Positions 4,822-9,803 of a stretch of 64,000 nt of DNA are shown here, piece by piece. Source of the stretch: Promethearchaeota archaeon (GTDB lineage Archaea; Asgardarchaeota; Heimdallarchaeia; Hodarchaeales; Hodarchaeaceae); assembly GCA_048938105.1 (NCBI GenBank), contig JBHLMN010000019.1, positions 32,001 through 96,000 on the forward strand, given 5' to 3'. The notes beneath the pieces are model-generated. The model was not told where the DNA came from, did not search any database, and saw only the letters and a list, made by a program, of their open reading frames with translations. The position numbers and the translations under genes were made by a program. Positions within the stretch are counted from its first letter, which is position 1; every line of letters begins with the position of its first letter.

Positions 4822-6189
4822 TTGGAATTCCCAATAGAAAAAATCAATTATGTTAATTGGGATTTTCCTAAAAGTAAGACTCAATTTCTGACTCATAAAT
4901 ATCACTCTTATCCAGCACGATTCATTCCCCAAATACCACGCACAATCTACAATATATGTCTCAATTCGAGTGGTTCTAGAATCTTTGACCCATTCGTTGG
5001 ATGTGGTACATCATTAGTTGAAGGAATTTTATCTCGGAATCACACAGGTGGAGTTGATCAAAATCCTCTAGCTATTCTAATATCAAGAGTAAAAACACGA
5101 CCTTTAGATATTAACTCCCTGAATAATTATTGGAAGAGTTTTCAGAAAATTACCCAGCATAAGAATTCTATTTTTCAAATCAAGACAAATCCTAAATCGT
5201 TATCTAATAAAGAAGAACAGTACACACCCCGAGAATTCATCTTTCCTAATCGAAATTTATCAATACGATTCACTGATGATAATATTCAAGCAATCTCTTT
5301 AATTCTAGATCACATTGAAGAAGAAGTAATAAATACCCAATTTCAGGACTTCTTTAGAGTTGGGCTCTCAGCAGTAATTACAACTCTAACAGAATCAAAA
5401 AATTGGAGAAAAGTAAATATTTGGAACACCTTCCGAGTAAAAATTAATTCTATGATACACATTATGGACAAGTTCAATCGTAAGGTTATGGGATTTAGTA
5501 ATGACATGCAAGAAGATATAAAACTCGGAGATTCGAGAAAAATATCTTTTATTTCCGATGAAACAATTGATTGCGTGGTTACATCCCCACCATATGTTAA
5601 TGCATTGGATTATAACCGTATTCATCAATATAATATGAGTATTCTCGGGTATGATTATCGAGCTTTTGCTAAAGCTGAAATTGGAGCTCATGGACACCAT
5701 ATTAGCAATAGGTGGAGATTATTAACGGAATATTTAGCAGATATGGCTCAATCAATAGTTGAAATGAATAGAGTAACCAAACAGGGAGGTGTCATATGCA
5801 TTATAATTGGGGATAGTTGTTTAGAATATGAGAATATAAGTTCTCATAGCCATTTTAAAGAATTAGGAAAATTATTAGGATTAACACACCAATTATCGCT
5901 TTCTCGAAACATCGATGCAACAAGTAAATCAACTAGTAATGACATTGGAAACATTTTTTCAGAGTATTTAATATTTTTTACAAAAGATAACGAATTTGAA
6001 AAGGGATCAGCAAATTTAATACATGAATATATTGAAAATACGTTGTACACCTACTTGGATCATGTAAAAACAAGTACAGGAACCTGTCTAAGAAATAAAG
6101 CCGAAATATCTACAGAAAGACAAGAATTAGCTGTTCAAAGGGTTGAAGAAGCTATATCAAAAATCAAGGAAGATTATCGTTCTGTTTAG
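4822..6189 (+). CDS. DNA amino-methyltransferase, alpha-type motif order (probably N4-cytosine)
   Basis: HSYPARFIPQIP, DPFVGCGT (motif I) before TSPPY (motif IV); GAGGTG SD before the TTG start. Confidence 0.88.
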   Translation: MEFPIEKINYVNWDFPKSKTQFLTHKYHSYPARFIPQIPRTIYNICLNSSGSRIFDPFVGCGTSLVEGILSRNHTGGVDQNPLAILISRVKTRPLDINSLNNYWKSFQKITQHKNSIFQIKTNPKSLSNKEEQYTPREFIFPNRNLSIRFTDDNIQAISLILDHIEEEVINTQFQDFFRVGLSAVITTLTESKNWRKVNIWNTFRVKINSMIHIMDKFNRKVMGFSNDMQEDIKLGDSRKISFISDETIDCVVTSPPYVNALDYNRIHQYNMSILGYDYRAFAKAEIGAHGHHISNRWRLLTEYLADMAQSIVEMNRVTKQGGVICIIIGDSCLEYENISSHSHFKELGKLLGLTHQLSLSRNIDATSKSTSNDIGNIFSEYLIFFTKDNEFEKGSANLIHEYIENTLYTYLDHVKTSTGTCLRNKAEISTERQELAVQRVEEAISKIKEDYRSV

Positions 6190-7132
6190 TGTTATTTTGG
6201 AAGGATTGATCGAGTTCCCTGTGTTTGAACTCAAGTTGTGTCTGGAAAATTCTTTTTTGGAGAGAAAGAACATATCTAGAGGTTTTAATCTGATCTCTGT
6301 ATTTTTCTGCCATTAGAAACCACCAAACATTCCATAAGGCTCTATTTATCCACCCTTCTGTACCAGCTTTGTGCAACATTTCATAAGAGTCAATAAAAGG
6401 TGGAGCGTACAACTCAAATAAATAGGCCATATTTTTCCCCTTCTTTTTCTTCTTGCGAGCTTCATGAACGTAAACAGATCCTTCAGGAGTATAACATGAA
6501 CATACGGCCGCGTTCCTTCGCCAACCAATCCAATCCCCAGAATAAAGAAAATCTTGAAAAGCGATTTGGTGGAATGGGCTTCCAACTCCAAAACCATGAA
6601 ATTTCTTTTCAGGGATAACACATGATAATGATGCTAGCCAAGATGCAACATCATGAACACTACCAGGTTGATTTATTTTGAATGAGGGAACCATTCCTCC
6701 TAATCCCACGTAATCGTTTGAAGGATATGAATTTCTGGTATCAGGTATATGGATAACTGGTATGATGTCATAATCAAACTTCTTGGTCAAATAGATCCAA
6801 TTTTGTCTTGATTTTCTTGAATTCCCAATTACATCCAAATTAACAATTATATCCTTATCATGAATATTTATTTCAGATAGAAATGACGCATAATCTTCAA
6901 CTTGGATGTTTACACCAGAGTTAAAAGCACTGTAAGCACCAGAATCCACCATAATTGGACCTTCAAAAGAGAAATAATCATGAAGACCTTTTGAAACCAT
7001 ATCAATTTCCTTCTTTCTAAAGGACCAATATGAGAATATAATTCCTGAATGATTTCTTATCATCTTTTTGTGAATACTCGGTTCAATTGACCAGGGAAAA
7101 ATACCTGGGACAACCCCTAAATATAGTTGCAA
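6164..7132 (-). CDS. DpdA/TGT-like guanine transglycosylase-fold protein (copy 1)
   Basis: IMVDSGAYS, NLDVIG, IIPVIH, VGLGGMVP, FHGFGVG, SGDW: TGT barrel motifs with both catalytic Asp equivalents. No PUA domain and no CxCxxC Zn site. Confidence 0.78.
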   Translation of the reverse strand: MQLYLGVVPGIFPWSIEPSIHKKMIRNHSGIIFSYWSFRKKEIDMVSKGLHDYFSFEGPIMVDSGAYSAFNSGVNIQVEDYASFLSEINIHDKDIIVNLDVIGNSRKSRQNWIYLTKKFDYDIIPVIHIPDTRNSYPSNDYVGLGGMVPSFKINQPGSVHDVASWLASLSCVIPEKKFHGFGVGSPFHQIAFQDFLYSGDWIGWRRNAAVCSCYTPEGSVYVHEARKKKKKGKNMAYLFELYAPPFIDSYEMLHKAGTEGWINRALWNVWWFLMAEKYRDQIKTSRYVLSLQKRIFQTQLEFKHRELDQSFQNNTKQNDNLP

Positions 7133-7294
7133 ATGTTACTCCTCTGGAGTTCTACTGATTTGATAACCTGATTTTTCAAGATTTAAAGGAAATTATACAT
7201 ATTTATAATTCGTATGGGAGAATTATTTTTAATATTGAACTAATTAATGTTGGTAACGATCTAGGTTAGATTTTCTTGAAAAGGTGGTATTATT

Positions 7295-8225: not shown

Positions 8226-8720
8226 ATGCTGTTGAAGCAACCTAAAGTCCTGTTAGTGGTTTCCTGTAGTAAGAAAAAATCTCCTCAGTTATATGATCGT
8301 AAAATGCGAGCTATAGAAGCTTATACTGGCCCAATGTTCCAAGTCATACATAAAGCCCAGCGTGAGGGTAAATGGGATTCTAACCTTTTTTTAGGAATTA
8401 TTTCTGCTAAATATGGGTTTCTACGTAGTGATGAGTTCATAGAGAATTATGATCTAAAAATGACAAGACAGATTGCTGAAAAACACAATCCTCAGGTTAT
8501 ACGAGAGATGATCAGGTGGAACAATGAAGAGAAATTTAATTGGATTTATGTTTTGATGGGTAAAACGTATTTAAAAGCTGTTGAAGGTTTAGAGGCTCAT
8601 ATAAATACAAACATCGAGGTTGAAAACATGGGGGGTCTTGGAATAGGCCAACAGAAGTTGGTACAGTTCTTGGAACTAGTCTCAGAGAGATCAATGTCCT
8701 TAACAGAGTTAGTGAAATGA
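8226..8720 (+). CDS. DUF6884/YaaA-like protein (ORF track start 8166; likely start ATG 8226)
   Basis: LLVVSCSKKK, AIEAYTGPMF, IISAKYGFL, IENYDLKM, GKTY, GGLGIGQQKL pattern. Confidence 0.75.
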   Translation: MLLKQPKVLLVVSCSKKKSPQLYDRKMRAIEAYTGPMFQVIHKAQREGKWDSNLFLGIISAKYGFLRSDEFIENYDLKMTRQIAEKHNPQVIREMIRWNNEEKFNWIYVLMGKTYLKAVEGLEAHINTNIEVENMGGLGIGQQKLVQFLELVSERSMSLTELVK

Positions 8721-8729
8721 GAGTTTATC

Positions 8730-9803
8730 ATGATTTTCGCCCTTGGTACTCCAATTAATGCAAGATTTCGCCCTTGGACTTATGATTGGACACTAAAACC
8801 AGATGCACTAATGGTTTCAGCAATTGATTTTTTTACTACCCCCACTTTATTTCAGAAAATTAAAAAGGTTGGAATTCATGAATATCTCAAGTGGGATGGC
8901 CAAATTATATGTGACTCGGGTGCATTTTCTGCATTAAATCGAAAGAAAAAGATCAACATTGATATTGAGGAATTGAAGAGAATTTATAGAGAAATAACGA
9001 GTCAAGATCCAAATATTCTAAAAATCACTTTAGACTTTCCTGATGATAAAATTTTAACTCATTATAGGGAGCTATATTCATTAGAAGTTCAACCTGTTGT
9101 TCCTTACGATCGAGTCGGAATTATGAACAATATTATTCGAAATGAAGGGTTACCTGAATGGTTTTTCATTGGACGTCTTGTTCCCCTGATGAGAAAGGGG
9201 GGAAGCCATGCAAATCGGTTATTTCCTGTGATTGAAGAATTAAGAAGACATCTTAAGAATATCGAAGCTTTAAGACTAATAAAATTATGGGCCTTGGGAG
9301 TAGGTGCTCCAAGTATCATTCTTCAACTAGCTGAATTAGTCGATGGGTGTGATTCTGCTCGTTGGCGTATAACAGGGTCCAATATGATACTTTTACCAAA
9401 AGGTGGGGAACGTGGTGTGGGAAACTTAACAAAGTGGCGTGGTACACATCACAGGATAAGTGAAGGATTTGAAAAAGAAATTGTCATAAAAATAATTCAA
9501 CAACTTGAGGAGAAATCAGGAGGATTGGGAAACATTGATATGTCTCTCCTTCCTGATAAACAACCAAAACAACTAAGAACCAAAAAAGAGAAAAATCTGC
9601 CAAAAATCGGAGAACTAATAAATAAAATACAAGAAAATAAGAATCAAATTTCAGTTTATGATCTAGAACTCCTCTTGCGAACATCAGGAAATTTAAGACT
9701 TCTATTTAATTACTGGTCTGCATTATCCTATAAAACTCAATTTAGCGGAGTCACTAAATCAAGAGAATCTAAACACTTTACACTGGATTCAATGTTAGAT
9801 TGA
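8730..9803 (+). CDS. DpdA/TGT-like guanine transglycosylase-fold protein (copy 2)
   Basis: ICDSGAFS, ITLDFP, VQPVV, FIGRLVP, LWALGVGAP, VDGCDSARW. Confidence 0.75.
   Translation: MIFALGTPINARFRPWTYDWTLKPDALMVSAIDFFTTPTLFQKIKKVGIHEYLKWDGQIICDSGAFSALNRKKKINIDIEELKRIYREITSQDPNILKITLDFPDDKILTHYRELYSLEVQPVVPYDRVGIMNNIIRNEGLPEWFFIGRLVPLMRKGGSHANRLFPVIEELRRHLKNIEALRLIKLWALGVGAPSIILQLAELVDGCDSARWRITGSNMILLPKGGERGVGNLTKWRGTHHRISEGFEKEIVIKIIQQLEEKSGGLGNIDMSLLPDKQPKQLRTKKEKNLPKIGELINKIQENKNQISVYDLELLLRTSGNLRLLFNYWSALSYKTQFSGVTKSRESKHFTLDSMLD

Follow-up and report, generated by a model that had tools for sequence, protein, structure and literature searches.

A candidate DNA base-exchange module with two divergent guanine transglycosylases in the archaeal order Hodarchaeales

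Introduction

Deazaguanine bases in DNA have so far been described, in the literature that we consulted, from phages and viruses and from mobile restriction islands of bacteria. In the bacterial Dpd system of Salmonella Montevideo, the key residues of the transglycosylase DpdA are D95, F99, D130, H181, G206-G207-M208-V209-P210, and D256, and DpdC converts dPreQ0 (2ˊ-deoxy-7-cyano-7-deazaguanosine) to dADG, which is 2ˊ-deoxy-7-amido-7-deazaguanosine (PMC10164549). The Sulfolobus viruses STSV1 and STSV2 carry a DpdA paired with ArcS2 (DUF5591), and 2ˊ-deoxy-7-carboxy-7-deazaguanosine (dCDG) has been detected (10.1101/2023.04.13.536721). Here we examine a locus in 64,000 nucleotides of DNA (the window) from a Promethearchaeota archaeon (GenBank assembly GCA_048938105.1, contig JBHLMN010000019.1, positions 32,001 to 96,000), which encodes two enzymes related to tRNA-guanine transglycosylases (TGTs), called TGTa and TGTb, together with a DUF6884 protein and DNA methyltransferases. 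The window belongs to contig C31 of a 5.85-Mb genome that is 99% complete. The organism is a member of the Hodarchaeales, the Asgard lineage proposed to be closest to eukaryotes. A literature search returned no description of the TGTa/TGTb/DUF6884 module of this order.

On balance, we lean slightly towards a reading in which TGTa puts salvaged preQ0 into DNA, the DUF6884 protein converts this base to ADG (7-amido-7-deazaguanine), and TGTb deals with a different base or step, in association with orphan methyltransferases. This reading builds on the fold, active-site residues, ancestry, gene linkage, and supply genes of the module, from which we infer its substrate, the base concerned, and its biological role.

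Results

Two barrel-only relatives of guanine transglycosylases

Domain models recognize the two enzymes only at their margins. The Pfam TGT match is below the cut-off (E=0.005), TIGR00432 scores TGTa at 32 bits and TGTb at 21 bits against a cut-off of 350, neither enzyme has a PADLOC model or a DpdA match in PADLOC, and sequence searches of the PDB with either profile yield best E values of 0.02 or higher. The AlphaFold models of the two proteins (predicted local distance difference test scores of 88 and 95) have TGT-family structures exclusively as their top Foldseek matches. Specifically, the TGTa model reaches VIA Z scores of 25.0 to the archaeal tRNA enzyme arcTGT (1iq8) and 21.5 to DpdA (7ui4), the TGTb model reaches 19.9 and 17.7, respectively, and unrelated barrels score 13 or less with both. 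Three aspartates of TGTa (D63, D100, and D200) are invariant in 63 homologues, as are D62, D102, and D208 of TGTb in 60 of 60. Neither enzyme has a PUA tail, leaving both as barrels only, and the CxCxxC...H zinc ligands of related archaeal proteins are replaced in both. The models and residue alignments agree with the original prediction, which had seen two divergent TGT-barrel proteins that keep DSG and the second catalytic Asp and lack PUA and zinc-site features.

In TGTa, the residues listed above for the S. Montevideo enzyme have the counterparts D63, Y67, D100, H128, G145-G146-M147-V148-P149, and D200, which are invariant or nearly so. The enzyme thus combines a His at the position of Gln in TGTs with a GG(M/L)V loop of the preQ0 type. 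Its PVIH sequence is the pattern of phage DpdA, whereas the tRNA TGTs compared (arcTGT and E. coli Tgt) have xxxQG with Gln. Cyanobacterial bDpdA also has Gln at this position, and the His is therefore indicative and not diagnostic. TGTb, which is homologous to TGTa over 189 columns with 22% identity, lacks the conserved His and the GG pocket. An invariant P125 stands in place of the His, an invariant G148-R149 puts Arg in place of the second Gly, and W187 replaces the His of beta-7. TGTb has a rebuilt pocket but seems intact as a catalyst. R149 lies in the loop by which the 7-substituent is read, and from this location we suggest that it would favour an amide or carboxylate there.

Ancestry on the side of DpdA

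Short TGT-like proteins proved to form a large family when 1.84 billion proteins were searched with a profile, and trees were constructed that took in arcTGT, E. coli Tgt, and the DpdA proteins of bacteria and phages. TGTa is sister to the phage DpdA1 proteins of 9g, MS1, HD01, VpKK5, and CRB2 (support 100/95), with bDpdA forming a clade apart from it. TGTb forms a long-branch clade that may join either TGTa/DpdA1 or the clade of STSV2 DpdA (89/83). Approximately unbiased (AU) tests reject the grouping of tRNA TGTs with TGTa (p-AU 4e-6) or with TGTb (2e-4), which supports the proposal that these enzymes are of the DpdA type and not of the tRNA type. The same tests reject TGTa and TGTb as sisters (p-AU 0.001). 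Because of this rejection, and with the usual caution about long branches, the tree indicates that the pair is not a simple local duplication. The two genes had been predicted to be paralogues, and they are indeed homologous, but they are neither sisters nor equivalent, since TGTb has lost the DpdA His and one Gly.

Viral sequence collections point in the same direction for TGTa. The PHROG family phrog_887 matches it (E=1e-22), and a tblastn search against phages matches 127 records, most of them annotated as DpdA-type. In the same collection TGTb matches only STSV1, STSV2, and STSV4 (E 0.01-0.04, tblastn), and no relatives of TGTb were found in IMG/VR. Neighbours in the Atlas are viral clusters for the most part. 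The nearest TGTa relatives outside Hodarchaeales (P0192, P0211, and P0160) lie on contigs that are short or uninformative. We also considered an ancestor of eukaryotic QTRT1/2, which is ruled out by the missing zinc site and the DpdA-side ancestry, in a tree that includes no eukaryotic sequences.

TGTa orthologues on virus-like contigs

Six TGTa orthologues with 48-53% identity (P0120, P0126, P0127, P0128, P0130, and P0132) reside on contigs that are virus-like by gene content and layout, which does not prove them to be viruses. These contigs carry co-oriented, mostly small unknown genes and have 34-35% GC where measured. TGTa is accompanied there by one to four N4/N6 DNA methyltransferases, a Hel308-like helicase, an RFC-like clamp loader, XPF, and primase, or by ribonucleotide reductase, PolB, and dCMP deaminase. 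Several of the genes have counterparts in the present genome that are 40-59% identical, as would fit a related host. On one of the contigs, a gene for 128 amino acids with CxxxK, Y.G, ILS.KHG, and YD motifs overlaps the start of TGTa and is weakly DUF6884-like (E=6e-4). No TGTb gene is present in the stretches of these contigs that were read. The host and viral copies of TGTa are interleaved in the tree, which has a polytomy at its root, and monophyly is rejected for the viral copies (p-AU 0.023) but not for the host copies (0.25). Of the independent arguments that DNA is the substrate, this virus-like context is the strongest, and it suggests a mark common to host and virus.

Further features were noted on two virus-like contigs. 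On a 145-kb virus-like contig (L113/L170/L171; ENA ERZ23498442 scaffold_46), a block of glycosyltransferase, PIG-L, LpxD-like, glycerophosphate-transferase, and Asn-synthase genes adjoins the TGTa orthologue, and several genes of the block are similar (26-47% identity) to a glycosylation cluster that the host carries on contig C52. Another virus-like contig (L174:6383-16641) encodes DNA methyltransferases of 800 and about 1600 amino acids that contain intein/LAGLIDADG sequences.

The same contigs bear on the suggestion that TGTa and TGTb form a single heterodimer like QTRT1/QTRT2, or that TGTb binds a deazaguanylated protein as does Cap10 of the CBASS (cyclic oligonucleotide-based antiphage signalling system) defence systems. 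Both enzymes co-occur in all well-assembled genomes of the host family, their pockets deviate in complementary ways, and Cap10 is a TGT fold retargeted to protein (10.1101/2025.04.06.647259) with Z scores of 14-18 to the two models. However, TGTb keeps all three aspartates, unlike QTRT2, the zinc dimerisation subdomain is absent, TGTa occurs without a TGTb gene in the stretches read of the virus-like contigs, and neither a QueC-like Cap9 nor a CD-NTase is encoded nearby. A predicted TGTa:TGTb complex scored 0.01, which speaks neither for nor against binding. Overall, we give these two ideas the smallest chance of the readings discussed here. The original prediction had offered a heterodimer or two specificities. 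An obligate heterodimer is disfavoured by the virus-like contigs and by two genomes in which the genes are 12-13 kb apart.

Vertical inheritance and gene linkage

Gene linkage was counted in 21 related loci, and all close homologues are from Hodarchaeales, for which we used 23 genomes of the order and 21 of the host family (lineage Hodarchaeaceae). The DUF6884 gene is directly 5ˊ of TGTb in 19 of the 21 loci, corresponding to every locus of the host family. TGTa is divergent upstream in 14 loci, is distant in the two genomes already mentioned, and is lost to contig ends in three, and the methyltransferase gene MT2 is located 3ˊ of TGTb in 18. The slot 3ˊ of TGTa is occupied by a DNA methyltransferase in 14 of 14 host loci, namely MT1 in five and an unrelated Eco57I/TaqI-type protein of 930-1070 amino acids in nine, with a Sir2 or other gene sometimes intervening. 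By comparison, DUF362 (7 of 21 loci), a gene of the transporter family MFS (6), and MT1 (5) are held by one sub-clade, the nearest, while the Eco57I/TaqI-type protein occurs in others, and this limited occurrence rules out DUF362 and MFS as core parts.

Genome-wide, TGTb is a single-copy gene in 22 of the 23 Hodarchaeales genomes, and DUF6884 matches are likewise present in 22. Full-length MT2 is found in 19 of the 21 host-family genomes. TGTa is present in 16 of 20 sampled genomes of this family and in one sister-family genome, with no strong match in the remaining Asgard genomes among 300 sampled. The DUF6884-TGTb pair is thus inherited vertically as fixed chromosomal genes in Hodarchaeales. 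Relative to locus L012, the ratio of nonsynonymous to synonymous substitution rates (dN/dS) is 0.11-0.30, or about 0.2 per gene, indicating purifying selection on all module genes. The module is therefore not a chance assembly, and a pseudogene reading is ruled out by the same values.

The compact chromosomal linkage that had been predicted is conserved across genomes, and its membership changes. The predicted methyltransferase, MT1, is peripheral, as is DUF362, whereas MT2, which lies beyond the interval originally proposed, and the presence of some DNA methyltransferase after TGTa are conserved. In one genome (L018:9989-11713, bin272 chromosome), the TGTb reading frame continues beyond residue ~296 as ornithine/aspartate carbamoyltransferase sequence, which is probably an assembly junction or a rearrangement.

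Supply of preQ0 and the tRNA pathway

QueC was found in none of the 21 host-family genomes. In the present genome, phage or sister-family queries for QueE, QueC, and FolE retrieved nothing convincing, with no match for QueE or FolE1, and two PTPS/QueD-like genes are present. YhhQ, which is a preQ0 importer (PMC6884629), is encoded in 19 of the 21 genomes, including this one. Because QueC is missing throughout while YhhQ is common, preQ0 is probably salvaged and not made by the host, and the 'host preQ0' of the original prediction gives way to import. One sister-family genome has the arrangement queD-queE-queC-queC without a YhhQ match, and the two QueC paralogues stand there in tandem (L083:342-2780). 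De novo synthesis of 7-carboxy-7-deazaguanine (CDG) as a source of substrate for TGTb was ruled out for this genome by the lack of a QueE match.

Elsewhere, the genome encodes its own arcTGT, its own ArcS, and an adjacent radical-SAM gene (probably RaSEA), and position G15 of tRNA is therefore already served. Since arcTGT and ArcS are intact, TGTa and TGTb are not parts of a split ArcS or split arcTGT. It could still be that DpdA-derived enzymes were domesticated, either to modify a tRNA or rRNA position other than G15 or to release and recycle 7-deazaguanine bases for a preQ0 auxotroph. Single-copy core genes in a housekeeping neighbourhood, a host that salvages preQ0, and an N-terminal GLH..F..DSG stretch that resembles tRNA TGTs would all fit such a role, as would the short TGT and DUF5591/ArcS2 pairs that reside among housekeeping genes in other Asgard families (see below). 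We nonetheless regard this explanation as unlikely, because the ancestry lies with DNA-acting DpdA1, the PUA and zinc domains are both missing, close orthologues occupy viral blocks for DNA modification and replication, and the methyltransferase neighbour is kept across two unrelated methyltransferase families.

The DUF6884 protein and the methyltransferases

The DUF6884 protein has the feature expected of a DpdC-like converter on grounds of homology, with Pfam matches to DUF6884 (E=2e-14) and YaaA (4e-7) and PADLOC matches to DpdC (E=0.001) and to the candidate-defence model PDC-M57A (6e-11). Proteins of this YaaA/DUF328-related family have a basic cleft, base flipping out of nucleic acid has been modelled for them, and binding to damaged DNA is known for a B. 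subtilis member (PMC11701544). DUF6884 also appears as dpdC in dpd islands (10.1101/2025.02.24.639861). We observed a homologue at the head of the QueCDE-FolE-DpdA operon of phage HD01, another ahead of a TGT gene within a helicase/PLD island of haloarchaeal origin, and a mostly archaeal Atlas cluster of like fold whose 575-amino-acid proteins carry DUF6884, apparently as a fusion. Comparison with DUF5591 profiles gave a weak match (E=0.016, probability 2.8%) from which we do not claim homology.

These observations also raise the scenario of a counter-measure to modified viruses, in which TGTb and DUF6884 recognize and then excise or alter deazaguanines that virus-borne TGTa orthologues have placed in viral DNA, in the manner of Dag glycosylases. 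Defence glycosylases that target deazaguanine do exist (10.1101/2025.10.29.685425), TGTa orthologues occur in viruses or mobile elements whose GC and genes resemble those of the host, the pocket of TGTb is altered yet catalytic, and both the PDC-M57A match and the damaged-DNA binding of the B. subtilis protein would suit this role. Near-universal vertical inheritance and low dN/dS are unlike defence genes, however, and the intact host TGTa would be left unexplained, making this scenario improbable.

In MT2, the invariant DPP(F/Y) and FxGSGT motifs are confined to the C-terminal half, and DPPY is lost from the N-terminal half, which by its motifs is probably inactive. This N-terminal half is nevertheless kept across the family (52% mean identity) with a weak match to the CcrM family, and is possibly a recognition or dimer-mimic domain. 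A third DNA methyltransferase, of the Eco57I type and with 726 amino acids, is encoded 10 kb from the module (window 19476-21656) and occurs in a few close relatives.

The DndB/DpdB domain (PF14072) was found in none of the 23 Hodarchaeales genomes. In the present genome, DpdE searches produced generic helicase matches only, far below cut-off, and DpdK searches produced none; DpdD and DpdF-J were not searched, and none of DpdD-K is among the annotated neighbour genes. The predicted absence of DpdB and of DpdD-K is supported for DpdB, DpdE, and DpdK.

Layout of the locus

All five open reading frames originally proposed were confirmed, as were the 9-nucleotide gap between the end of DUF6884 and the start of TGTb and the tail-to-tail arrangement of MT1 and TGTa, which overlap by 26 nucleotides (Table 1). 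The DUF6884 reading frame is open from 8166 (8166-8720, +), and an ATG provides the likely real start given in the table. Relatives without DUF362 have 83-148 bp separating TGTa from DUF6884. Further Pfam matches are those of the DUF362 protein (2.5e-37) and of N6_N4_Mtase (1e-9). Two PNPOx-like genes, one of them fused to a membrane domain (DUF7530-like), are located at window positions 2328-4165 and are shared with the nearest relative, L012, alone.

Table 1. Coordinates of the module genes and adjoining features in the window.
Feature	Position	Strand	Description
TGTa	6164-7132	-	DpdA1-related guanine transglycosylase, 322 aa, TTG start
TGTa residues			D63, Y67, D100, H128, GGMVP 145-149, D200; basic RKKKKKGK patch
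DUF6884 (DpdC/YaaA-related)	8226-8720	+	SCxxxK and ISAKYG motifs
TGTb	8730-9803	+	Second TGT-barrel enzyme, 357 aa; D62, D102, D208 invariant; rebuilt pocket
MT2	11275-13707	+	810-aa tandem beta-class DNA methyltransferase; conserved partner 3ˊ of TGTb
MT1	4822-6189	+	m4C-type DNA methyltransferase, SPPY motif; tail-to-tail with TGTa
Intergenic region	7133-7294	.	162 bp, AT-rich, divergent; between TGTa and the DUF362-DUF6884-TGTb run
DUF362	7295-8197	+	Clade-limited insertion, 7/21 loci; not core
MFS transporter	9840-11138	+	Clade-limited insertion between TGTb and MT2, 6/21 loci; not core

Related genes in other Asgard archaea

Other Asgard families have a short TGT-like gene together with a stand-alone DUF5591/ArcS2 gene among housekeeping genes (L065, L068-L073, and L076). 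One such group clades with the DpdA of Sulfolobus virus STSV2 (100/100), and the pairs give the impression that a DpdA and its converter were captured by chromosomes a second time, independently. The group L065/069/071/072 has Glu at the nucleophile position (SIES). In Heimdallarchaeia, TGT-like genes of ~390 amino acids that retain the zinc site (L063:8032-9195, L064:7690-10104, L066:8284-9516, and L074:1644-2837) reside in a defence-island-like context adjoining methyltransferases and large unknown genes, with two tandem copies in L064. Finally, provirus-like Asgard regions (L075 and L077) carry DpdA1-type genes with QueC-like or QueE-like genes and replication genes.

Discussion

Hodarchaeales genomes may bear an undescribed 7-deazaguanine mark in their DNA, because DpdA-type enzymes are fixed among DNA methyltransferases and one of them also occurs on virus-like contigs. 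In the mechanism that we propose, YhhQ would import preQ0, and the same supply would feed the separate arcTGT/ArcS/RaSEA pathway for tRNA. The evidence strongly suggests that TGTa would then flip a target guanine out of DNA and exchange it for preQ0 by the double displacement of DpdA, with D200 as nucleophile, D63 as acid/base, D100 and H128 reading the edge of the base, and the GGMVP loop selecting preQ0. Like phage DpdA1, it would do so without the DpdB ATPase. The DUF6884 protein would presumably hydrolyse the nitrile of dPreQ0 to give dADG, as does DpdC. The least certain step is that of TGTb, which might handle a different 7-substituted base or site, or might remove or edit the mark. Together with the neighbouring orphan methyltransferases, the modification could serve as a chromosome-wide self or epigenetic mark, produced by a vertically inherited DNA base exchange that apparently lacks a restriction arm.

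Several observations weigh against this proposal. The whole-fold score of TGTa favours arcTGT over DpdA (Z 25.0 versus 21.5), and the DpdA His is missing from TGTb. YjbQ, TFB, and HflX are about as syntenic as MT2, so that linkage alone is no proof of a shared pathway, and in the sister family TGTb is apart from DUF6884 and TGTa (L031, L032, and L114). Single-copy core status among housekeeping genes is seen more typically in RNA or housekeeping enzymes than in systems that mark DNA. The lack of a de novo preQ0 pathway implies an environmental supply, and no capsid, terminase, or virion genes were found in the parts of the virus-like contigs that were read.

A more specific and decidedly tentative version of the proposal holds that the mark is fixed, chromosomal, and independent of restriction, with a DpdA1-type writer shared with viruses, maturation by DUF6884, and a second transglycosylase of new base specificity that edits or extends it, forming an orphan system analogous to Dam/CcrM. 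If the DNA-marking proposal is true, base exchange in DNA would have a housekeeping use in archaea, in a core version that spans the order and has no restriction arm, and a measurable mark is predicted in long-read or liquid chromatography-mass spectrometry data from Hodarchaeales. TGTb would then be a transglycosylase with a new pocket, possibly for a new base, and of interest for DNA-labelling tools.

Among described systems, the phage DpdA1 enzymes (Enterobacteria phage 9g and Streptococcus MS1; phrog_887; PMC6884629) share with TGTa the same clade, the DSGA(F/Y), LD, PxxH, GG, and HGFG motifs, and the lack of both a zinc site and DpdB. TGTa differs in being a chromosomal core gene without linked folE/queDEC, in its identity of only about 25-30%, and in having both DUF6884 and a second, non-sister enzyme alongside it. 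The bacterial Dpd system (DpdA/B/C with DpdD-K; S. Montevideo, 7ui4; PMC10164549) has the TGT barrel, the same catalytic and preQ0-selecting residues, and a DUF6884/DUF328-type DpdC-like neighbour in common with the locus. By contrast, the Hodarchaeales genes have no DpdB in any of the 23 genomes, no DpdE/K match, no zinc site, and a tree position outside bDpdA, and they are vertically fixed with two enzymes, whereas Dpd is a mobile island.

The STSV1/STSV2 pair likewise couples a transglycosylase with a small converter and lacks its own preQ0 synthesis, but the partner in Hodarchaeales is DUF6884 and not DUF5591, and the STSV2 DpdA clades apart with other archaeal chromosomal proteins. The arcTGT enzyme (1iq8) has the same fold and catalytic aspartates and shares the GGxVP preQ0 loop with TGTa. 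However, TGTa and TGTb are without the C1, C2, PUA, and zinc features, have His or Pro instead of Gln, and form a separate clade. In QTRT1/QTRT2 the second subunit lacks the catalytic Asp, whereas TGTb keeps D62, D102, and D208. Type IV CBASS with Cap9/Cap10 differs in turn, as the host family has no QueC and there is no CD-NTase among the neighbours. In other words, the module appears to belong neither to bacterial Dpd nor to arcTGT, and would work like a viral DpdA1 joined to a DpdC-type converter.

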